A stretch of DNA of 64,000 nt from Opitutia bacterium (GTDB taxonomy: Bacteria > Verrucomicrobiota > Verrucomicrobiia > Opitutales > Opitutaceae), in NCBI GenBank assembly GCA_947475065.1, contig CANJLB010000003.1:20214-84213 (forward strand). Direction: 5' to 3'. Both the position numbers and the translations under genes were made by a program. Below the pieces are notes generated by a model. That model did not search any database. It saw only the letters and a list, made by a program, of their open reading frames with translations, and had not been told where the DNA came from. Positions 40,603 through 61,950 of the stretch are shown here, piece after piece; positions within the stretch are counted from its first letter, which is position 1, and each line of letters begins with the position of its first letter.

Positions 40603-40723
40603 TAGTGGTATAGTTTTGGTCGGTGGTAGGTTGCGCGCTCGCCGCGCAACTCCGGCGACAGAGGGCAAACGTGGCGTGACGAGCACGCCACCTACCCCGG
40701 AAAATTCAAACTGTACCACTACC
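40603..40723. mobile_element. BIME/MITE-like element (REP-A + REP-B palindromes) flanked by 10-bp direct repeat GGTCGTTGGG
   Basis: The target-site-like duplication lies at 40593-40602 and 40724-40733. Terminal inverted repeats tagtggtatagtttt / aaactgtaccacta. Internal palindromes gtaggttgcgcgctcgccgcgcaac and gtggcgtgacgagcacgccacctac are the same units that flank the RAYT at 60 kb. Confidence 0.65.
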
Positions 40724-41116
40724 GGTCGTTGGGCGATCACCGGGACCGGTTCCAGCTCCTTCAGGCATCCCTTCCCACCGGCGTCTTGAACTCGGCGCTG
40801 AACGTTCGTCTGTGTTTTGGCATGGAGGACTCTGCCCCATCAATCCGTCCCCCGCCTTCGGCAAAGGCTGCGCCGCTACGCTTCCCCTGGCTCACAACAA
40901 CTCACAAAAATCGGCCTGCCCCCTCGGCTTGGCCGCCGCCCGCGCGCGGGCCGCAAGCGGCCTGGCGTCCGTTTTTCGTCACAACGATAGCCCAATGCGA
41001 AAGATTTTCCGAGGGATTCGGGCGGCAGCGGGCGTCTTTGGGGTGAAGCCCATCCACCCGACCACATAAACCTGCATCCTTCTCCCTTCAAAATTTTCAC
41101 CACCCAAGTTGCCTTC

Positions 41117-43376: not shown

Positions 43377-43457
43377 GTCACCCCTGCGCTGGCAGCACGA
43401 AGATGCCCGGCATATCGGCCAGGGCGCGGCACCGCCCAGGTTTGCACAGCGGTTGTC

Positions 43458-43562
43458 CGGTGGTAGGTTGCGCGCTCGCCGCGCAACTCGGGCGACAGAG
43501 GGCAAACGTGGCGTGACGAGCACGCCACCTACCCCGGAAAATTCAAACTGTGCCACCACCGG
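43458..43562. mobile_element. BIME/MITE-like element, second copy (~95% identical core to 40621-40723)
   Basis: cggtggtaggttgcgcgctcgccgcgcaactcgggcgacagagggcaaacgtggcgtgacgagcacgccacctaccccggaaaattcaaactgtgccaccaccgg. Confidence 0.65.
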
Positions 43563-43900
43563 CCGGCGGCGGCACCATCACATGGCCCATGACAGCGGCG
43601 AACAGGGTTTCAGATTATTCAAGAGTGGAGGACCGAATCCTGTCCCGGAAGGCTCGTTGCCCGTACCGCATCAAGTTATGCCAACGTCTGTTAACATTGG
43701 GACGATGGGCCCGATAGCGCCGGGAAGGTTCGGTCCCGGCTCTCCCGAGCCTTTTGGGCTACACTGAGCGGCGCGCCCAGCGGGCACGCCCTACCTTGGG
43801 ATCACCCGATTAGTCTGTAGCTCAGCAAAATCCCCGTCTCCGCAGCCTGAGCCCCTTGGGCGGCTCCCCTGCCCTGCCGGCCATCCAGCCGCCTCACGCC

Positions 43901-48584: not shown

Positions 48585-48830
48585 TGGTGCTTGGTTCCTA
48601 GTTCGGGATTCCTGGTTTCTTGGTTTCTGAATTACGACCGGATTTTGAATGGCTGATGTCGGCCTGCGGCCTCGGTAACAGAAGCCAGGAAGCCAGGAGG
48701 GAAAAGCTGTTACCGAGCGAAGCGACAGGCAAGTCGCACGCCAAAGCTGAAAGGCTGAAAGCTGAGGCAGGAGGCCAGAGGTCAGAGGCCCGAGGAGGCG
48801 GAGGACGTGGGCATCTTGCGATGCTGTGAG
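48585..48830. repeat. intergenic repeat family A, copy L
   Basis: Modules: cctggtttcttggtttctgaatt (48611-48633); gaatggctgatgtcggcctgcggcctcggtaacagaagccagga (48647-48690) with internal hairpin ctcggtaacag/ctgttaccgag (48671-48717); aaagctgaaaggctgaaagctgag (48743-48766). Confidence 0.55.
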
Positions 48831-50443: not shown

Positions 50444-50715
50444 GAGCTGAGAGCTGGCGGAAAAGCTGAGAGCTGAAAGGCTGAAAGCTGAAATCGGAGG
50501 CTAGGAATCGGAGGGCAGCGTGCTTGCTTCTTGGTTTCTTGGCTTCTGAATTTTACCGTCTGGATTGGTCGGAGGGATCGCGGAAATCGGAGAAGATAAT
50601 GGCTGATGTCGGCCTTGCGGCCTCGGTGACAGAAGCCAGGAGACCGAAGACGGAGGGTGCATCGCGGAGAAGTGGAACGGCGGAAAAGCTGAGAGGCGAG
50701 ATCGAGATCGGATGA
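50436..50715. repeat. intergenic repeat family A, copy R (same modules as L, begins at the CrtI-like stop codon)
   Basis: gctgagagctgagagctgg...gctgaaaggctgaaagctgaaat; cttggtttcttggcttctgaatttt (50530-50553); aatggctgatgtcggccttgcggcctcggtgacagaagccaggag (50598-50642). Confidence 0.55.
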
Positions 50716-52008: not shown

Positions 52009-53010
52009 TCAGTTTTCACGGCCCTGCCGCAGGCGGTCGAAATAGACGGCCACGATGATCACGAGGCCGATGATGATCTCCTGAAAATAATTCGGCCACT
52101 CCATCGCCTGCGTGCCGGTGCGGAGCACCGCCATAAGCAGCGCGCCGATCATTGAGCCGAGCACCGTGCCCACCCCGCCGTTCAGGCTCGCGCCGCCCAC
52201 GATCACCGCCGCGATGATGTCGAGCTCCAGCCCGACGGCCGCCGTCGGGTCGCCGAGGCTCAAGCGCGAGAGCTGAAACAGCCCGGCGAGGCCAAAGAGG
52301 CACCCCGCCAGCCCATAGATCAGGATTTTCAGCCGCACGGTGGGCAGGCCGCAGAGGCGGGCGGTCTGCTCGTTGGAGCCGATGGCGAAGACGTGCCGGC
52401 CAAACACCGTGCGGCACAGCAGCAGCGCGACGAGCAGGGCGAGCGCCAGCACCACCCACACACCCACCGGCAGGGCCATGCCGTCCGGGTCGGCCGTGGT
52501 CATCCAATCGTCAACCGGCGTGTGCCAGTCCGCGTTGGCGGCCTTTTGCAGCGGGGTCGGGTAGTTGACGGTCTGGTTTTCCGCGAGCCACTTGGCCGTG
52601 CCACGCACGATGCCGAGCGTGCCGAGCGTGACGATGAACGGCACCATCCGCAGCCCGGCGATGAGCGTGCCGTTGAGCAGGCCGATGAGCGCGCCGCCGG
52701 CCACCATCGCCAGGACCGCCACGCCCGCCGGCCAGTCGTGCTGGAGCAGCCGCGCGCCGATGACGCTGGTGAGCGCGATGGTCGAGCCGACCGACAGGTC
52801 AATGCCGCCGCTCACGATGATCATGGTCATGCCCAGCGCGCCGACCGCCACGATGACCGTCTGCGTGAAAATGATCTTGAAGTTGTGGTAGGTGAAAAAA
52901 TTCCCGTGGTGGGTCACGAGCGGGACCGCGATGGAAAAAAACGCGATCACGAGGATCAGCCCGATGAACGGGCCGCCCTTGAGGAGGATTCTTTTCAAGC
53001 TGGCTTTCAT
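52009..53010 (-). CDS. sugar ABC transporter permease (RbsC/XylH-like)
   Basis: Started at MKASLKRILLKGGPFIGL. ~10 TM helices. C-terminal GGASLNGGVGTVLGSMIGALLMAVL...FDRLRQ. Confidence 0.9.
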   Translation of the reverse strand: MKASLKRILLKGGPFIGLILVIAFFSIAVPLVTHHGNFFTYHNFKIIFTQTVIVAVGALGMTMIIVSGGIDLSVGSTIALTSVIGARLLQHDWPAGVAVLAMVAGGALIGLLNGTLIAGLRMVPFIVTLGTLGIVRGTAKWLAENQTVNYPTPLQKAANADWHTPVDDWMTTADPDGMALPVGVWVVLALALLVALLLCRTVFGRHVFAIGSNEQTARLCGLPTVRLKILIYGLAGCLFGLAGLFQLSRLSLGDPTAAVGLELDIIAAVIVGGASLNGGVGTVLGSMIGALLMAVLRTGTQAMEWPNYFQEIIIGLVIIVAVYFDRLRQGREN

Positions 53011-53020
53011 GGGCAAGGGC

Positions 53021-54526
53021 TCACTCGCCGCCGGTGGCGACGCGCATGACACCGGCCTCGGTCCACTCCGCGCGCGGGCGCACGGCGGCCAGCTCGCCCC
53101 GGCACATCACGCCGATGGTGTCGCACAGCCCGAGCAGCTCGGGCAGGTAGGAGCTGACGACGACGACGGCCTTGCCCGACGCGGCGAGGTCGCCGATGAG
53201 CTGGTAAATCTGGGCCTTGCTCCCCACGTCAATGCCGCGCGTCGGCTCGTCGAGCAGGAAAATTTTCGCGGGGTGCTCCAGCAGGCGCGCGAAGGCGACC
53301 TTCTGCTGGTTGCCGCCGGAGAGCTCGCCGATGGGTTGCGCAGCGTCGCGGCATTTCACCCGCAGCTCGTCCACCCAGCGCTGCGCGGTCGCGCGCTGGC
53401 GCCCGCCGCTGATGAAGCCGAAGCGGCCGAAGCGATCCTGTTTCGTGAGCGTCAGGTTGTCGGCGATGGACTGCGAAAGCATCAGCCCCTCCTCCTTGCG
53501 GTTCTCGCTCAGAAAGCCGACGCCCTCCGTCCAACGCGCGCGCGGCGTGGAACGGCCGGCGGGCGCCCCGACGACGCAGACCTCGCCAGCGGCCAGTTCG
53601 TCCAACGAGAAAATCGCGCGCAGCAAATCCGTGCGGCCCGCGCCGATCAGCCCGCCGAGGCCGAAAATCTCGCCCGCCCGCACCTGCAAGGTGGCGCACC
53701 TGAGGCGCGGCGGGCTGACGGCGGCCCTGACCTCCAGCACGACCGCGCCGGTGGCGTGCGCGGCGCGCGGGTAGAGGTCTTTCACCTCGCGGCCGGTCAT
53801 CAGCGTGACGAGGTGGTCGAGCGTCGCGCCCTTCATCTCGCCGGAGCCGACGGTCTCGCCGTCCTTGAGCACGGTGTAGCGGTCGGCGATCCGGCGGCAT
53901 TCCTCCAGAAAATGGCTGATGTAGATGACGCCGACGCCCTGCGCGCGCAGGCGGCCAATGGTGGCGAAGAGCTTTTCGGTGTCGGCCTGCGTGAGGCTGC
54001 TCGTCGGCTCGTCCATGATGAGAATTTTGGGCTGCTTGAGGAGCGCGCGGGCGATCTCGATGACCTGCTGCTCCGCGATGGAAAATGCTCCCGCCGGGCG
54101 GCCGAGGTCGAGCGCCTCGTGGCCGAGCTGCGCAAGCGCGGCGCGGGCGCGCTCGCGGGAGGCCGCACGGTTGATCCAGCCGGCACGGGCGGACTCGTCG
54201 CCGAGCAGGATGTTCTCCTGCGCGCTGAGGTGCAGCGCGAGGTTGAGCTCCTGGTAGATCATGGCGACGCCCTTGAGCCGGGCATCGTGCGGGTTCTCCG
54301 GCAGGTAGGGCCGGCCGGCGAGCTCCATCGAGCCGGCGTCGGCCCGGTGCGCGCCGCTGAGGATTTTCATCAGCGTGCTCTTGCCCGCGCCGTTCTCGCC
54401 GATGAGCGCGTGAACCTCGCCGGGCGCGATGCCGAAGGAAACCCCGCGCAGCGCGTGGGTGGCGCCGAAGCTCTTGCGGATGCCCGCCAGCCGGAGGCTC
54501 GCGGCGGTGGTGAGAGGGTTTGTCAT
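53021..54526 (-). CDS. sugar ABC transporter ATP-binding protein with two NBDs (RbsA/XylG-like)
   Basis: Two Walker A motifs (GENGAGKST; GLIGAGRT), two ABC signatures (LSGGNQQKV etc.), 501 aa. Its ATG start codon lies inside a 33-bp repeat copy. Confidence 0.9.
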   Translation of the reverse strand: MTNPLTTAASLRLAGIRKSFGATHALRGVSFGIAPGEVHALIGENGAGKSTLMKILSGAHRADAGSMELAGRPYLPENPHDARLKGVAMIYQELNLALHLSAQENILLGDESARAGWINRAASRERARAALAQLGHEALDLGRPAGAFSIAEQQVIEIARALLKQPKILIMDEPTSSLTQADTEKLFATIGRLRAQGVGVIYISHFLEECRRIADRYTVLKDGETVGSGEMKGATLDHLVTLMTGREVKDLYPRAAHATGAVVLEVRAAVSPPRLRCATLQVRAGEIFGLGGLIGAGRTDLLRAIFSLDELAAGEVCVVGAPAGRSTPRARWTEGVGFLSENRKEEGLMLSQSIADNLTLTKQDRFGRFGFISGGRQRATAQRWVDELRVKCRDAAQPIGELSGGNQQKVAFARLLEHPAKIFLLDEPTRGIDVGSKAQIYQLIGDLAASGKAVVVVSSYLPELLGLCDTIGVMCRGELAAVRPRAEWTEAGVMRVATGGE

Positions 54527-54553
54527 TCTGAGCGCAGCGAAGAATCCAGTGCG
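54521..54553. repeat. 33-bp repeat copy 1 (tgtcattctgagcgcagcgaagaatccagtgcg)
   Basis: Overlaps both the GIY-YIG stop/C-terminal 10 codons and the ABC ATPase start codon. It is identical to copy 2 at 54893-54925. Confidence 0.8.
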
Positions 54554-54870
54554 GTGTTGGCATCCACTGAAACATCATGCCACCCCTCGGCCAAGTCTTT
54601 CCAAAGGGGATTTTCCTGCTGGATCAGAGCGATCTTCCGATCACGCCGCCAACCCTTCAGCTCGGTTTCACGGCGGATGGCGTTGGTCACATCGCGGAAC
54701 TCCTCAAAATAGACCAGCCGGTGAAGGCCGTAGCGCTTGGCAAAACCATCCTTGGCCCCGGTCTTGTGCTGCCAAGTGCGTCGTTCGAGAGAATTGGTGA
54801 CACCGATGTAAAGCGTGCCGTGCGGCTTGTTGGACAGGATATAGACCCAGTAGCTGCGGTAGGTGGACAT
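54523..54870 (-). CDS. GIY-YIG nuclease family protein (small, standalone)
   Basis: YILSNKPHGTLYIGVTNSLERRTWQH...GWRRDRKIAL is the GIY-YIG catalytic module. 115 aa. It is inserted between the ABC substrate-binding and ATPase genes. Confidence 0.85.
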   Translation of the reverse strand: MSTYRSYWVYILSNKPHGTLYIGVTNSLERRTWQHKTGAKDGFAKRYGLHRLVYFEEFRDVTNAIRRETELKGWRRDRKIALIQQENPLWKDLAEGWHDVSVDANTALDSSLRSE

Positions 54871-54892
54871 CTTGAAAGGGCGGAAAAAGGCA

Positions 54893-54977
54893 TGTCATTC
54901 TGAGCGCAGCGAAGAATCCAGTGCGAATCTCGATGGCGGACATCCAACTGGATTCTTCGCTGCGCTCAGAATGACAA
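54893..54977. repeat. 33-bp repeat copy 2 plus inverted copy 3 forming a ~30-bp-stem hairpin upstream of GIY-YIG
   Basis: tgtcattctgagcgcagcgaagaatccagtgcg (54893-54925), a 22-nt loop, then ctggattcttcgctgcgctcagaatgaca (54948-54977), the perfect reverse complement. Confidence 0.8.
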
Positions 54978-55039
54978 ACTGGGGGGCGTGCGCTCGGATT
55001 ACGCAGGCATTTCGGCTCTCCCAAACGGGCGCGCGCGGG

Positions 55040-56050
55040 TCATTTCAGGTATTTGTCGAGCGGCGGGTGGACGATCTCGGCCATCTCCGGGGCGTCGAAA
55101 TTTGCCTTGGTCACGAAGCCGACGCCGGTGTCAATGCGCGCCTCGACTTTCTGGCCCTTGATCGCGGCGACGGCGTTCTTCACGCCGAGGTAGCCCATGT
55201 TCATCGGGTTCTGGACGACGAAGCCCTGCACCTCGCCTTTCTGGAGGCCGTCGTTGAGCGTCTCGCTGGAGTCGAAGGCGACGAACGTCAGCTTGCCGGC
55301 GAGCTTGGCGTCGCGCAGGGCGAGCAGCATGCCGGAGGCGGCGGACTCGTTGCAGGCGAAGATGCCGTTGACCTGGGCGCCAAACTTGGTGAGCAGGTTT
55401 TCCGAGGCGGTCTTGGCCGAGTCGCGGGTCGCGCCGGCGTGCTGGTCGGTGGAGAGCAGCTTGATGGCAGGGAAGTCCTTCGCCATGACTTCGAGGAAGC
55501 CTTCCTCGCGCTCCTCGGTGCTGGCCGAGCCGACGAGAAAGCGGAGCATGATGACGTTGCCCTTGCCGCCGAGAATCTTGCCCAGCTCGCGGGCGGCGAT
55601 GCGGCCGCCCTCCTTGTTGTCGGTGGCGATGAAGCTAGTGAGCGCCTTCGACTGGAGGCCGGAGTCAATGACGATGACGGGGATCTTGCCCTTCACGGCG
55701 GTCTCGACCGGGGCGACGAGCGCCTTGCTGTCGAGCGGGGCGACGACGATGGCGTCAACGTGCTGGCCGATGAAGTTTTCGACGACCTGGATCTGCTGCT
55801 CGCGGTCGTCCTCCCGGAGCGGGCCTTTCCAGAGGACGTTGACCTTGATGCCCTGCGCGGCGAGCTCCAACTGGGCCTTCATGGCGCCGGCGTGGATGGA
55901 TTTCCAGAACTCGTGCGTGGTGCCTTTCGGGATGACGGCGATCTGGAGCACGCCGGCAGCGGGGGCGGCACCGGCGGCGGGCTGGTCGCTGGGAGCTTTG
56001 GAGCAAGCGCTGAGCGCGAGCAAGGTGAGGGCGGCAAAGAGGCGTTTCAT
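55040..56050 (-). CDS. sugar ABC transporter substrate-binding lipoprotein (RbsB-like, periplasmic binding protein type I)
   Basis: Started at MKRLFAALTLLALSACS (lipobox). PBP-I fold motifs (IAVIPKGTTHEFW, VDAIVVAPLD). Confidence 0.9.
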   Translation of the reverse strand: MKRLFAALTLLALSACSKAPSDQPAAGAAPAAGVLQIAVIPKGTTHEFWKSIHAGAMKAQLELAAQGIKVNVLWKGPLREDDREQQIQVVENFIGQHVDAIVVAPLDSKALVAPVETAVKGKIPVIVIDSGLQSKALTSFIATDNKEGGRIAARELGKILGGKGNVIMLRFLVGSASTEEREEGFLEVMAKDFPAIKLLSTDQHAGATRDSAKTASENLLTKFGAQVNGIFACNESAASGMLLALRDAKLAGKLTFVAFDSSETLNDGLQKGEVQGFVVQNPMNMGYLGVKNAVAAIKGQKVEARIDTGVGFVTKANFDAPEMAEIVHPPLDKYLK

Positions 56051-56424
56051 GGGAGGCGGAGGGAAGGGTCGGGGTGGAGGGGAAGGGAGCTGGGAGAACG
56101 GCAAGAAAATGGGGCCGCGTCAACGCCCTTCACGGGCCGTAGGCGGCGACGGCGGTGCCGCCAAAAATGCGCGCCTGCTCGGCGGCGGTGAGCGGAGCCG
56201 TCCAGCCGCGCACGAGGGCGTGCCACCGCGCGTAGCTGGCGGCGACCGAGCGCCGCCCTCCGAAAAAGAAATCTGATTCTCTCGAGAGATTGTAATCAGA
56301 CGATGGGAGAATAGTTTCATGCCCTCAGGCACACCAGAAATCAGCCCTTCCCCTGAGCCTCTCTGTCCCATTTCCCCAACTTGGAAAGGAGGTCAGGACC
56401 CCTTTCAAAGCTGAATCGCAGCCC

Positions 56425-57780: not shown

Positions 57781-57859
57781 CGGGTAATCGCAGAGGGAGA
57801 ATGGCAGAGGGGAATCGTGTTCCGAGCGCAGCGACCAACTGACAATCGGGCAACTGATA

Positions 57860-57967
57860 ATCGGGAATCTTGAAATTGGACATGAGCGGCCTTCGCCGCG
57901 CGGAGAGGGATTTTCAGTTTCTCGATGCCCGATCAGGCTGATGTCGCTTCGCTCGGTACAGTTTTCG
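57860..57967. repeat. intergenic repeat family B, copy B1
   Basis: aatcgggaatcttgaaattgg (57860-57880) and ttttcagtttctcgatgcccgatcaggctgatgtcgcttcgctcggtacagttttcg (57911-57967). It shares the ggctgatgtcg...ctcggtacag core with family A. Confidence 0.5.
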
Positions 57968-57989: not shown

Positions 57990-58832
57990 TCAGGCGAGCC
58001 GATAGACGCGGAGTGCGTTGCGTCGGAAGATGGCGTCCTGGTCGGCGGCAGAAAGATGGGAGACGAGCCCGCGCGCTGTCGCGAGCCAGCGTGGATAGGG
58101 GCTGGCGAGCTTGGCAACCGGCCAGTCGCCGCCGAAAAGCAGACGGCCGGGGCCGAAAGCGGCGAGGGCGTGATCCACGTAAGGTTTGAGGTCGGCAGGT
58201 TGCCACGCGACGTGGTCCGCCTCGGTGATGAGTCCGGAGAGCTTGCAGTCCACGTTGGGCAGCGCGGCCAGCTCGCTCAGATGCGCACGCCACGGGTCGA
58301 GCAGCCTGCCGCGGATGCCGGGCTTGCCAAAGTGGTCCAGGACAAAGCGCGTGCCCGGGCAGGCCCGCACGAGGCGGACGGCCGCCGACATCTGATGGTG
58401 AAAGCAACACAGGTCAAAACTCAGCCCCGCCGCGCCGACCGCCTGCACTCCGGCGATAAATTCGGGCCGGGCACAGAAATCCGGGTCCGGCTCATGCTGG
58501 ATGAGGTGGCGCACGCCGCGCACCAGCGGATGGTGCCTCAGTTGGGCGAGATAGTCCGCCGTTGTAGCGCCCTCGTTCATCATGCACTTGGCGACGATGC
58601 CGGCAATGCGCGGCTCGGCGGCGGCCAGCCGCTCCACCCATTTCGCCTCGTCGAGCCACGGTGCGCCGCACTCGACGAAGACGATCTTTTCGGGGAATTG
58701 GCCACCCGTCTCCACGCGCAGCTCATCGGGCGTGTGCGGACCGGCGATGGCCGGCACTTCCGCCAACCAAGGATAGGGCAGCGTACGCTGATCCCAGAAG
58801 TGAACGTGTGAATCTACGAAGGAGAAGCTCAT
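57990..58832 (-). CDS. amidohydrolase-2 family protein (lactonase-like)
   Basis: FVDSHVHFWD N-terminal metal-binding motif, TIM-barrel amidohydrolase_2 features. 280 aa. Confidence 0.85.
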   Translation of the reverse strand: MSFSFVDSHVHFWDQRTLPYPWLAEVPAIAGPHTPDELRVETGGQFPEKIVFVECGAPWLDEAKWVERLAAAEPRIAGIVAKCMMNEGATTADYLAQLRHHPLVRGVRHLIQHEPDPDFCARPEFIAGVQAVGAAGLSFDLCCFHHQMSAAVRLVRACPGTRFVLDHFGKPGIRGRLLDPWRAHLSELAALPNVDCKLSGLITEADHVAWQPADLKPYVDHALAAFGPGRLLFGGDWPVAKLASPYPRWLATARGLVSHLSAADQDAIFRRNALRVYRLA

Positions 58833-58867
58833 CGGAAGGTGGGGAATCGTGAAATCAGAAAACTGAA

Positions 58868-58980
58868 AATCGGGAATCTTAAAATTGGCGACGGGCTATC
58901 TGGCGCGGGGTTGCAGGGAACTTTTCAGTTTAACGATGCCCGATTTGGCTGATGTCGCTTCGCTCGGAACAGTTTGCAAG
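58868..58980. repeat. intergenic repeat family B, copy B2
   Basis: aatcgggaatcttaaaattgg (58868-58888) and ttttcagtttaacgatgcccgatttggctgatgtcgcttcgctcggaacagtttgcaag (58922-58980). Confidence 0.5.
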
Positions 58981-58988
58981 TTTCCGTT

Positions 58989-59783
58989 TCAGGTCGAGGC
59001 CTTCGTCGTGCAGGCACGGTCGAGATGCACATAGCCGCCGTCCACATGGAGGATCTGGCCGGTGGTGTGCGATGAACGGGGCGAAGCGACAAACACCACG
59101 GTGTCGGCTATCTCCTCGGCCGTGGTCATGCGGCGTTCCAGCGGAATCGTGGCTTTGATCGCGTCGAGCGAGGCGGCGGGATCGGGGCGTTTCTCAAGCC
59201 AGCGAGAGTAGAGCGGTGTCATCACCTCGGCGGGCAGCACGCAGTTCACGCGGATGCCGTATTGGGCGAGGTCGAGCGCCCATTCGCGGGTCAGGCCGTT
59301 CATCGCGCCCTTGGCGGCCACATAGCCGCTGGTGCCGCCCTGGCCGGTGACGGAGCACTTGGAGCCGATGTTGATGATGGTGCCCTGGCTGGCGATGAGC
59401 GCGTCGAGCGCGGCCTGCACGAGCACAAAGCACTGGATGATGTTTGTTTCGAGCGACGCGCGGAAATCCGCCACCGGCGCGCGCAGGCCCACGCCGTCGT
59501 TCACGCCGGCGTTGTTCACCAGGCAGTCAATTCGGCCGTGCTTCGCCCACACGGCGGCGACGGCGGCGCGCACGGCGGCCTCGTCAGTCATCTCGCAATG
59601 GAAGGTGTCGGCCTTGCGGCCCGAGGCGGAAATCTCGCCCACGAGCACGGCAGCCTCCTCGCGGTTACGGCCAAAAATGCAGACGGTCGCGCCTTCGGCG
59701 GCAAACGCGCGCGTGATGGCCGCGCCGATACCCTTCGCGCCACCGGTGACGATAACGACCTTGTGATCGAGTTCGAGTTTCAT
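58989..59783 (-). CDS. SDR family oxidoreductase
   Basis: VVIVTGGAKGIGAAI (TGxxxGxG), NNAG, catalytic YVAAK. 264 aa. Confidence 0.9.
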   Translation of the reverse strand: MKLELDHKVVIVTGGAKGIGAAITRAFAAEGATVCIFGRNREEAAVLVGEISASGRKADTFHCEMTDEAAVRAAVAAVWAKHGRIDCLVNNAGVNDGVGLRAPVADFRASLETNIIQCFVLVQAALDALIASQGTIINIGSKCSVTGQGGTSGYVAAKGAMNGLTREWALDLAQYGIRVNCVLPAEVMTPLYSRWLEKRPDPAASLDAIKATIPLERRMTTAEEIADTVVFVASPRSSHTTGQILHVDGGYVHLDRACTTKAST

Positions 59784-59890
59784 TGCGGGAAAGTGGGGCC
59801 ACGCACACGGCCCGTGGCAAGCCGGATGACTGCCGTGTGATCAGTCCCGCGTGGCAACATGCGGAGAGCGCAACCGACGCGGAATTCCCG

Positions 59891-60035
59891 GAGTTGCGCG
59901 ACGAACGCGCAACCTACACGGATCGGACGTAGGTGGCGTGTTTGCCGCGCCTCGTTTGTCCTGGCGTAGGTTGCGCGCTGGTCGCGCAACGTTTTTCCCC
60001 AGGCCCCGGAGTTGCGCGACGAGCGCGCAACCTAC
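59891..60035. repeat. REP array (three palindromic units in alternating orientation) 10 bp downstream of the RAYT stop
   Basis: gagttgcgcgacgaacgcgcaacctac (59891-59917), gtaggttgcgcgctggtcgcgcaac (59966-59990), gagttgcgcgacgagcgcgcaacctac (60009-60035). Confidence 0.8.
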
Positions 60036-60044
60036 ACGGACCAA

Positions 60045-60563
60045 TCACCCCAGCCACTCGGGGAATGGCTGGCCGTTGTCGGTCAGGTCGCGTAACCACT
60101 CCCAGTCTTCGTCGCGGCAGTAAAAATATGGCCACGTTTCCCCCTCCGCCACCAGCCCTGCCCGGGGCGGGTTCAGCCAGAGGTAGCGGATCACGCTCTC
60201 CGCCGAATCCTCCGGGCGGAGCCGATGGTCGTAGAAATTCTCCTGCCAGCCGGCGCCCTGCGGGCGCAGGAGCGCCTGCGTCTTGGTCTTGAGCCGCGCC
60301 ATGGCCTGCGAGAGCGTGAGCCGTGCGCCCAGCGTGAAAAACAGGTGCGCGTGGTCGGGCATCACGGTCAGGCAGCGCAGCGCCCACGCGCCGTCGGCGG
60401 TCAGGCGGTGCGTCTCGGCGAGCAGAGCGGGGGCGATGCCGGGGACGAGCACGGGCAGGCGCGGTTGAACGCAGACCGTCACGAAATAGTCCGCGTGCGG
60501 CACAGAGGCGCGGCCCCGGCGCAAGGCGTTGGGTCCAGTATTCCGTTTCGGCGGCGGGGCCAT
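60045..60563 (-). mobile_element. REP-associated tyrosine transposase (RAYT, IS200/IS605 TnpA-like)
   Basis: 172 aa from the internal Met. HxH motif in MPDHAHLFF and catalytic Tyr in ENFYDHRL. It is flanked on both sides by REP palindrome arrays, the defining RAYT context. Confidence 0.8.
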
Positions 60564-60575
60564 GCGGGGATTGTG

Positions 60576-60702
60576 GTAGGTTGCGCGCTCGTCGCGCAAC
60601 GTTTGGTTGTCCGGCGTAGCAACAAGGTGGCGTGCTCGTCGCGCCACGGTTGTCATCCGCCGACCCCTGATCCCTGAGTTGCGCGACGAGCGCGCAACCT
60701 AC
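60576..60702. repeat. REP array upstream of the RAYT (REP-A, REP-B variant, REP-A inverted)
   Basis: gtaggttgcgcgctcgtcgcgcaac (60576-60600), gtggcgtgctcgtcgcgccac (60627-60647), gagttgcgcgacgagcgcgcaacctac (60676-60702). The first two lie within the ORF-track N-terminal extension of the RAYT ORF. Confidence 0.8.
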
Positions 60703-61809: not shown

Positions 61810-61950
61810 CGGAAGGCTTCGCGGCTTCTGTTACCGAGGCCACAAGGCCGACATCAGCCATTCGTCAGAACAGAACATTTAAGAAGGCTTCCTCCTAAAA
61901 ACATCCGTCTGCCTCCGCTTTCATCTCTAATTTTCAGCTCTCAGCGTGGT
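61810..61950. repeat. intergenic repeat family A, copy 3 (reverse orientation)
   Basis: ccgaggccacaaggccgacatcagccattc (61834-61863) is the rc of gaatggctgatgtcggccttgtggcctcgg. aattttcagctctcagcg (~61929-61946) is the rc of cgctgagagctgaaaatt. Confidence 0.5.

Follow-up and report, generated by a model that had tools for sequence, protein, structure and literature searches.

Background

The Ssn family (CDD cd10448) of single-domain GIY-YIG proteins of about 94 amino acids was defined by Chenal et al. (2025, Nat Commun, PMC11893778), according to whom the target of these proteins is a hairpin repeat, known as NTS in Neisseria and more widely as SRM, which they bind solely as single-stranded DNA (ssDNA) and on one strand only. 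SsnA itself cuts ssDNA only, a few nucleotides (nt) 5' of NTS, and limits transformation in Neisseria (PMC11893778). SRMs were found near 71% of ssn genes and on both sides of the gene in 42%, and the repeat-gene-repeat architecture (NTS-ssnA-NTS, or Ssn-SRM) was already described there, together with its resemblance to insertion sequences (IS) and RAYTs (PMC11893778). Here we report a small GIY-YIG gene framed by hairpin repeats, which lies between two genes of a sugar ATP-binding cassette (ABC) transporter operon in an Opitutia bacterium (assembly GCA_947475065.1, contig CANJLB010000003.1, positions 20,214 to 84,213 of the forward strand; this whole stretch of 64,000 nt is called the window below). 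From the comparisons presented here we consider it probable, at roughly 0.8, that the locus is an Ssn-type nuclease gene with its cognate SRMs.

The testable traits of the family are all present at this locus, namely the size of the protein, its single domain, homology to SsnA, the catalytic residues, oriented hairpin repeats flanking the gene and orphan repeats in other genomes. The gene is real and, its architecture being known from the Ssn paper, does not represent a new sort of element. What sets it apart from the Neisseria prototype are the inner sequence of the SRM, the inward orientation of the repeats, their low local copy number and an insertion into an operon in which codons are shared with the repeat.

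A nuclease related to SsnA

The 115-amino-acid (aa) product of the gene, henceforth ssn, matches the Pfam GIY-YIG domain over residues 7-79 (E = 2e-14) and has no other domain. A tblastn search of a 7.3-Gb database with this protein recovered a Neisseria gonorrhoeae chromosome filed as a plasmid (E = 9e-15), where the matching open reading frame (ORF) is 94 aa long, carries Y6, Y17 and E64 at the residue numbers published for SsnA and lies amid NTS repeats in keeping with the consensus of Chenal et al. By its length, these three residues and the NTS flanks we recognise it as the gonococcal orthologue of SsnA, and it is this protein, not that of N. meningitidis itself, that serves as the comparator here. 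Pairwise BLASTP aligns residues 9-100 of the window protein with it at 42% identity (E = 3e-24), with Y10, Y21 and E68 opposite the catalytic Y6, Y17 and E64; the threshold for Ssn membership adopted by Chenal et al. is E < 1e-10 (PMC11893778), well above the value obtained. The proteins are also alike in that the N. meningitidis SsnA is a single-domain GIY-YIG protein of about 100 aa with a Y/Y/E catalytic set and a gene flanked on both sides by an oriented hairpin repeat. Of other small single-domain GIY-YIG proteins, those of UPF0213 (E. coli YhbQ, B. halodurans BH0048, PDB 1ZG2) show only weak similarity, the solved 1ZG2 matching the window protein far more weakly than SsnA does (E = 6.6e-5, 26 bits), and to our knowledge no repeats associated with UPF0213 proteins have been reported. 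No Ssn-specific model was found in NCBIfam, and no PADLOC model matches the window protein.

The gonococcal sequences concerned, NZ_CP119142.1 and NZ_CP119140.1 of PLSDB (L171; L010, L014, L017, L075 and L137-L168 below are relatives fetched from assemblies and metagenomes), are 2.17-Mb chromosomes filed as plasmids, in which the ssnA orthologue appears to start with ATT rather than ATG and the records carry no annotation at that position.

Clustered at 50% identity, the large family has 13,569 representatives when E <= 1e-3 is required and 4,462 when E <= 1e-10 is; the 150 family representatives listed range from 85 to 184 aa, each with a single matched stretch. The gene is under purifying selection, the ratio of nonsynonymous to synonymous divergence (dN/dS) being 0.13-0.17 in the three comparisons with estimable dS (in three others dS is too saturated). 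Part of the tail made up by residues 101-115 is encoded by an SRM, and the SRM-encoded ending ..SLRSE is retained by 58 of the 120 closest homologues; at the DNA level the last nine, SRM-encoded codons are 78-100% identical, as against 40-52% for third positions in the gene body.

Layout of the unit and its operon

The repeats, the gene and the flanking operon genes occupy the following positions in the window:

54518..54557, plus strand: SRM-1, reading GTCAT... on the plus strand, antisense to the genes; 27-nt core at 54521-54547; left arm of the 40-nt inverted pair; it contains the last 9-10 ssn codons (..LDSSLRSE), the ssn stop TGA and the ATPase start ATG
54523..54870, minus strand: ssn, 115-aa single-domain GIY-YIG nuclease, probably of the Ssn family
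54871..54892, minus strand: spacer of 22 nt between SRM-2 and the ssn ATG
54893..54925, plus strand: SRM-2, repeating SRM-1 exactly and in the same direction; proximal arm of the 30-bp hairpin
54923..54946, no strand: loop of the SRM doublet hairpin, 24 nt
54940..54979, minus strand: SRM-3, reading GTCAT... on the minus strand, sense to the genes; core at 54976-54950; distal arm of the 30-bp hairpin and right arm of the 40-nt inverted pair
54980..55039, minus strand: leader of 60 nt from the stop codon of the sugar-binding protein gene to the cassette
55040..56104, minus strand: periplasmic sugar-binding protein (SBP), Peripla_BP_4, upstream operon gene; the longest ORF starts at 56104
53021..54526, minus strand: sugar ABC ATPase, 501 aa, downstream operon gene
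52009..53052, minus strand: ABC permease, BPD_transp_2, last gene of the transporter operon

Read in the direction of the genes the order is SRM-> (<-SRM) ssn-> <-SRM. The 33-mer TGTCATTCTGAGCGCAGCGAAGAATCCAGTGCG occurs in exact copies at 54521-54553 (+) and, 372 nt from the first, at 54893-54925 (+), and in an inverted copy with two mismatches at 54944-54976 (-), the chance expectation for such matches in shuffled sequence being 0.00. A first-pass annotation of this DNA had placed one copy at the 3' end of the GIY-YIG ORF, overlapping the ATPase start, and the copy at 54521-54553 does hold both the TGA and the ATG. Its second copy, put at 23 bp upstream of the nuclease start, is exact but lies 22 nt away; its perfect inverted copy with a stem of about 30 bp is perfect in the stem, where 54893-54922 and 54947-54976 of the two upstream copies are complementary at 30 of 30 positions around a 24-nt loop, but not over the full 33-mer. 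As DNA this doublet hairpin has a folding energy of -40 kcal/mol (z = -11.1). An outer inverted pair, 54518-54557 with 54940-54979 (40 nt, 93% complementary), frames the whole 462-bp unit.

The stop codon of ssn (TGA, 54525-54523) overlaps the start codon of the ATPase (ATG, 54526-54524) as ATGA, with both codons inside the left repeat, which on the minus strand reads ...CTCAGAATGACA and ...CTCAGAATGACAAAC. SRM-1 thus shares its sequence with the end of one gene and the beginning of the next, and the first ATPase codons ATG ACA AAC (MTN) derive from SRM-1 and its T-rich flank. The spacer before ssn contains no Shine-Dalgarno-like sequence and, in a promoter scan, no promoter consensus. The beginning of the leader (CCCGCGCGC...) is common to the intergenic spacers of L135 and L014. 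For the SBP, the gene call on the identical contig L001 gives 336 aa, with a start equivalent to 56050.

Sequence class and structure of the repeat

The SRM of the window is an oriented unit of about 28 nt, YTGTCATTCTGAGCGNAGCGAAGAATCC. The Neisseria NTS can be written CGTCATTC-CCGCGMAVGCGG-GAATCYRG and the window repeat TGTCATTC-TGAGCGNAGCGA-AGAATCCAG, so that the two have the outer parts GTCATTC...GAATCC in common, both beginning (C/T)GTCATTC and ending GAATCC(A)G, but differ in the inner stem and loop, which is TGAGCGNAGCGA in the window and CCGCGMAVGCGG in NTS. Beyond the 26-mer core of the window class the conservation is limited to a T preceded by a pyrimidine upstream and C/A downstream, and the one free position of the core takes all four bases.

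A hairpin of the form ....(((((..((...))..))))).. was examined on 60 distinct 27-mers, gathered by similarity and not by pairing. In these, 93% of the cells pair, changes on both sides occur in six of the seven pairs, and there are 41 compensatory cells compared with 9.6 in shuffles (0/500). Covariation among repeat copies may be inflated by their relatedness, but controls in which the partner column was slid, with 2-9 compensatory cells, argue against this. The compensated stem variants include TTCT/AGAA, TCCT/AGGA, TGCT/AGCA, CTCT/AGAG, TCCC/GGGA and inner swaps of GC to AT, and the unpaired G-A / G-A positions and the loop G.A are nearly constant. Covariation therefore supports a small hairpin with a GCGNAGC apex as the structure that the SRM is likely to adopt. 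On one strand of ssDNA it would have a stem of 5 bp (ATTCT/AGAAT), then on either side two G/A positions that are unpaired but could form tandem G.A pairs, and the GCGNAGC apex.

At the Rfam gathering score no family covers the repeat hairpin, the matches being long-hairpin look-alikes such as miRNA precursors. RF02901 (Aggregatibacter sRNA 41) gives a sub-threshold match at 54892-55018 (+), where 36.7 bits (E = 3e-7) fall short of the gathering score of 97. The arms of its consensus (..GCUGAgCUUGcCGAAGCAUc..) look like an SRM doublet, and this sRNA family may itself rest on such a repeat. Searching the literature for the repeat or for the peptides read from it returned unrelated primer coincidences only.

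Repeats with and without the gene

We scanned for the exact 26-mer GTCATTCTGAGCGNAGCGAAGAATCC, with one genome per species, and obtained at least 120 stretches, each a fixed 8-kb block. By the titles of their records, those of metagenome-assembled genomes (MAGs), on which the taxonomy rests, they represent at least about 14 phyla, approximately 13 of them bacterial and one from an archaeal MAG. The taxa include Acidobacteriota, Chloroflexota, Verrucomicrobiota, Bacteroidota, Ignavibacteria, Clostridia, Desulfobacterota, Nitrospirota, Alpha- and Betaproteobacteria, Campylobacterota, groups of the candidate phyla radiation (CPR), Armatimonadota, Binatota and Gemmatimonadota. The archaeal case, a Candidatus Methanomethylophilaceae MAG (L114) with the exact bacterial 26-mer, could reflect either a real transfer or contamination of the bin. 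SRM-bearing stretches number 18 in a set of 2.9 million viral contigs.

Most of these repeats stand apart from the nuclease gene. Among the stretches listed, 100 exact sites have at least 700 nt on both sides, and an Ssn-like ORF lies within that distance at five of them (three loci), with no GIY-YIG gene nearby at the other 95. The first-pass annotation had treated the repeats as the cassette's own ends and proposed checking whether they always accompany a GIY-YIG ORF. They do not, and their spread over about 14 phyla speaks against the former idea as well; it is the converse association, of the gene with the repeat, that is strong. Like NTS, the window class has many orphan copies, which were seen in other genomes. 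Of the 100 sites, 55 are solo, 35 belong to the convergent type of inverted doublet, in which the loop mostly measures 20-50 nt, seven are divergent and three tandem, and given the frequency of convergent doublets the upstream hairpin of the window can be regarded as a typical doublet.

Around the gene itself the arrangement recurs. In L010, L014, L017, L075 and most of L137-L168 a sense SRM closely precedes the ssn start and an antisense SRM overlaps or just follows its stop, several of these relatives having an extra antisense SRM upstream, as in the window. The SRM variant is identical at the two ends of one ssn gene and different between loci. A general role of SRMs as donors of codons is not apparent, as an ORF of 100 codons or more begins at 14 of 132 ATGs and one of 80 codons or more ends at 12 of 132 TGAs, proportions not above those of control ATGA tetramers; among the orphan sites checked in stretches from Verrucomicrobia, none begins an ORF resembling an ABC ATPase.

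Some relatives depart from the usual inverted layout. L144 has two tandem Ssn-like ORFs within 1 kb (3-347 and 566-964), and the nearby SRMs (TGTCATCCCGAACGCAGTGAGGGATCT) are all in the same orientation. Downstream of ssn in L151 (~1790-1890) and L166 (~180-240) the terminal half of the SRM with its flank (GCTGCGCT(C/T)CTCAGGATGACAAGTGA) recurs in a head-to-tail array, with four copies ending in ATGAC in L151 and two in L166; breaks that were made and repaired again and again at the GTCAT end could have left this footprint.

Occupied and empty junctions

Comparison of orthologous operons shows both states of the SBP/ATPase junction. In P0122, which has the closest ATPase relative (93% identical) and the same upstream dehydratase gene, the stop of the SBP gene and the start of the ATPase gene overlap over 4 nt, and there is no nuclease gene. 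In L169 and L170 (ATPase 85% identical) the empty junction is available as DNA, ..CTGAACGAATGACGACGAGC.., with L169 reading AACGAATGACGACG. Relatives with an empty site, which the first-pass annotation had suggested looking for, therefore exist. The GAATGAC of the empty site equals the terminal heptamer of the SRM exactly, and AATGAC stands at both borders of the insert of about 513 bp in the window, a match that could follow from conserved Lys-stop and Met-Thr codons. Most orthologous operons are without the cassette.

At the same junction L135 (2405-2500; ATPase 84% identical) has a spacer with a solo SRM, TGTCATTGCGAGGAGTGAAGCGACGAAGCAATCCAG, whose class is another and a longer one; this longer class also flanks a frameshifted ssn copy in L163, and the junction seems to collect several kinds of SRM. 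L136 has a degenerate doublet without the gene, whose antisense arm provides the ATPase ATG, and no SBP gene upstream. ATPase starts derived from an SRM (MTN..) are found in 10 of 121 orthologues, scattered over the neighbour-joining tree. In other Opitutaceae, related ssn genes are located on either side of an ArgA-like gene, and one of these, P0008, nests among the genes from ABC junctions in the Ssn tree, the short trees being weakly resolved. Decayed ssn copies, with an in-frame stop or a frameshift, were found in L145/146/148 and L163.

The empty junctions in the closest relatives, the related genes at other places, the pseudogenes and the gene-less doublets together support past mobility of a putative Ssn-SRM cassette. 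The identical ssn protein occurs on 24 contigs, on every one at the same locus, it has no close paralogue, and outside this population there is no ssn homologue with more than 80% full-length identity (about 90% over the domain in P0002). Furthermore, L014, L137, L138 and L139/140 have the cassette at the same SBP/ATPase junction with the same ATGA sharing, and the nucleases at these occupied junctions of distant relatives are 69-74% identical in protein to that of the window (70-74% for the nuclease bodies), with saturated dS. Occupancy of the junction at such synonymous divergence implies that the window copy is old and stably inherited, and there is evidence against a recent or active element at this locus. 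The proposal of a discrete mobile cassette dropped into the SBP-ATPase junction thus fares unevenly, since the unit is bounded by repeats, is missing from P0122 and L169/L170 and has decayed copies and copies in other contexts, but was not recently inserted.

A possible mode of action and its alternatives

By homology to SsnA, the window protein is predicted to bind the SRM hairpin only on the ssDNA strand that reads GTCAT and to nick it a few nt 5' of GTCAT. This would place nicks near 54512-54520 and 54884-54892 on the plus strand and 54977-54985 on the minus strand, at times when the strands are single, as in replication, in transcription bubbles or in incoming DNA. This binding, the cleavage and the nick positions are inferences, and so is a role of the nuclease in spreading or maintaining SRMs. 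The cassette would have entered the SBP/ATPase junction long ago, at a native overlap ..GAATGAC.. that matches the terminal heptamer of the SRM, and we propose that it persists there because SRM-1 re-creates the ATGA stop/start overlap and so keeps the ATPase translationally coupled. The repeats, the stop/start overlap rebuilt by SRM-1, the covariation of the hairpin, the homology to SsnA, the empty and occupied junctions and the purifying selection are seen directly in the sequences.

A number of observations weigh against the assignment to Ssn-SRM or limit its parallel with Neisseria. The published SRM pattern HGTCWYN(0-2)YYVSBRHN(0-5)WNVSBRGN(0-2)RNCYNB matches nothing in the window, while as positive controls NTS matches it and the Neisseria locus does so seven times. 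The pattern fails on the window repeat because the inner stem and loop differ; its authors use it for searching, and it does not define the family. When one SRM is folded by nearest-neighbour energies, the small hairpin is not the minimum-energy structure of either strand. GCGNAGC is the classic DNA mini-hairpin of very high stability, its loop being GNA, and DNA also accommodates tandem G.A mismatches stably; such stability would explain why the nearest-neighbour model misses the fold and would suit a ligand recognised specifically as ssDNA. The SRMs point inward around the window gene and outward in Neisseria, and the geometry of cleavage may differ accordingly between the two. There are only three SRMs in the 64 kb of the window, all local and with no more even when nine mismatches are allowed, as opposed to the dense clusters of Neisseria, and unlike NTS the window SRM overlaps the ORF, giving it the stop codon and the next gene its start inside an operon. 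Across 17 loci there is no consistent target-site duplication, the inverted repeat merely extending 1-4 T-rich nt past GTCAT. Finally, activity of the window protein on this SRM variant is a prediction from homology.

It is conceivable, if on the whole somewhat unlikely, that the unit is instead a fixed and domesticated resident of the operon, with an Ssn that has a host role, for instance in restricting incoming ssDNA, and repeats that act mainly at the RNA level. As with the REP sequences of malE-malF, the SBP transcript would then owe its stability or processing to the 30-bp hairpin, and translation of the ATPase would be gated by the outer 40-nt pairing. The REP hairpins of the malE-malF spacer of E. 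coli are extragenic palindromes that separate the gene of the binding protein from the membrane/ATPase genes in an ABC operon, with an established role in the stability of mal mRNA; the palindromes of the window are placed alike, and a similar role is possible there. Domestication would account for the SBP/ssn/ATPase order and ATGA sharing conserved at saturated dS, and it accords with the strong purifying selection on ssn, with the effect of SsnA on transformation in Neisseria and with the SRM-encoded tail kept by nearly half of the closest homologues. In the minimum-energy fold of the whole cassette as RNA (z = -4.2) the outer SRMs are paired and the ATPase AUG is buried; during transcription the local 30-bp hairpin would form first. 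Regulatory roles at the RNA level are possible. They are less easily reconciled with the lack of the cassette in most orthologous operons, with a terminator and promoter scan that gave no consensus at or after the hairpin, and with orphan SRMs that are not generally placed at start or stop codons. The conservation of the SRM across phyla also speaks more for a DNA-level target of a protein than for a local function in RNA.

An active, autonomous mobile element, in which nicks by Ssn at SRM ends on ssDNA drive excision and copying of SRM-ssn-SRM units and of gene-less doublets with a preference for ..AATGAC sites, appears unlikely to us. The presence and absence of the cassette at one orthologous junction would agree with it, as would the scatter of SRM-borne MTN starts over about 10 lineages of the ATPase tree, the occurrence of one ssn clade at both ArgA-neighbourhood and ABC-junction sites, the pseudogenes and the degenerate doublet at the L136 ATPase start. 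The abundance of orphan copies, the exact 26-mer in so many phyla and AATGAC at the insert borders and the empty site can be read in the same way. Against present activity, the cassette is single-copy in the window, the exact protein is confined to one locus in one population, synonymous sites are saturated between occupied junctions, and target duplications are not consistent, with AATGAC open to the explanation by conserved codons given above. Moreover, we know of no GIY-YIG nuclease that catalyses strand transfer.

The resemblance to homing endonucleases raised in the first-pass annotation extends to the GIY-YIG core, an insertion between genes with site-specific occupancy, and weak matches to a homing-endonuclease PHROG (E = 0.002) and to TIGR01453. 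A free-standing enzyme of the Seg or I-TevI kind, cutting the double-stranded DNA of the empty junction and homing into it, is nonetheless very improbable. T4 Seg proteins and I-TevI have long DNA-binding extensions, cut double-stranded DNA, belong mostly to phages and introns and lack terminal repeats, and such genes do not carry dispersed hairpin repeats; the window protein, of only 115 aa, has no DNA-binding module, scores 17.8 bits against a cutoff of 56 for the group I intron endonucleases of TIGR01453, matches SsnA far better and has no homologue in 50,697 phage genomes. That the repeats are a product of chance or of assembly can be dismissed, since shuffled sequences yield none, independent assemblies carry the locus (24 contigs) and the repeat flanks homologues in many genomes.

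RAYTs, IS200/IS605 and other repeats in the window

An Ssn gene bracketed by its SRMs recalls the RAYT/REP-REPIN systems, in which a single-copy nuclease gene is likewise bracketed by its own hairpin repeats, also dispersed as solo copies and inverted doublets. This resemblance was also suggested by Chenal et al. (PMC11893778). The two differ in that RAYTs have the HUH/Y1 fold in place of GIY-YIG, their repeats are unrelated to SRMs, and no covalent-intermediate chemistry is known for the enzyme of the window. The IS200/IS605 elements are similar in the recognition of subterminal hairpins as ssDNA by TnpA and in forming units of a small gene and hairpins of less than 0.5 kb; they differ in that their ends are direct, on one strand and unlike each other (LE and RE), while those of the window are inverted copies of one motif, in the catalytic family, and in that transposition is not demonstrated for the window cassette. 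Identity of the window protein as a RAYT or an IS200/IS605 transposase was rejected, as it is a GIY-YIG protein without a Y1_Tnp (HUH) domain.

A RAYT is nevertheless present 5 kb away, a protein of 203 aa encoded at 60045-60656 (-), with 82.2 bits against a cutoff of 80 for NCBIfam NF047646 and E = 3.5e-7 for Pfam Y1_Tnp. In its region (59879-60702) REP hairpins GTAGGTTGCGCGCTCG(Y)CGCGCAAC lie on both sides, and further copies are found at 40613-40728 and 43450-43565, about 17-20 kb away. The window thus contains a classical RAYT/REP system beside the Ssn/SRM system.

Two blocks about 1 kb apart, 57829-57964 and 58823-58975, contain direct repeats of 36-54 nt (AATCGGGAATCTTGAAATTGG..., TTTTCAGTTT..GATGCCCGAT..GCTGATGTCGCTTCGCTCGG). 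They are unrelated to the SRM and probably correspond to the repeat B1 in which the first-pass annotation saw an 11-mer related to the 33-mer; the 11-mer is indeed present (57824-57834, one match against 0.2 expected), but as it lacks the GTCAT and stem context we take it for a chance match and not a relative. A further dispersed repeat, AATGGCTGATGTCGGCCTTGCGGCCTCGGTGACAGAAGCC, has direct and inverted copies of 90-95% identity at 48648-48694, 50598-50637, 59597-59621 and 61815-61862.

Conclusions

Chenal et al., who characterised the Ssn family as recently as 2025, raised the question of whether the unit of repeat, gene and repeat is, or once was, an insertion sequence (PMC11893778). The locus described here and its relatives provide comparative material for this question, with filled and empty alleles of one junction and with relocated, decayed and gene-less derivatives. 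The SRM class of the window is missed by the published pattern although it is among the most widely spread, and YTGTCATTCTGAGCGNAGCGAAGAATCC is a candidate substrate for a new Ssn specificity, which would be of relevance to the proposed ssDNA tools. The question of mobility, the identity of the 26-mer across phyla and the class missed by the pattern are the points that may still interest a specialist.

A more far-reaching reading, which we regard as speculative and quite unlikely, is that Ssn-SRM cassettes are mobile elements of a new mechanistic class, a GIY-YIG analogue of REPIN/RAYT based on the nicking of ssDNA hairpins, in which the gene-less doublets resemble miniature inverted-repeat transposable elements (MITEs), the GCGNAGC class of SRM, with two G/A positions flanking the mini-hairpin on either side, is identical over about 14 phyla, and preferential insertion at targets already reading (G/A)AATGAC rebuilds stop and start codons. 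If this were true, an SRM end that restores both a stop and a start codon would allow the element to live inside operons. The locus itself illustrates how a cassette can sit in an operon without breaking it, by donating the stop codon of its own gene and the start codon of the next.

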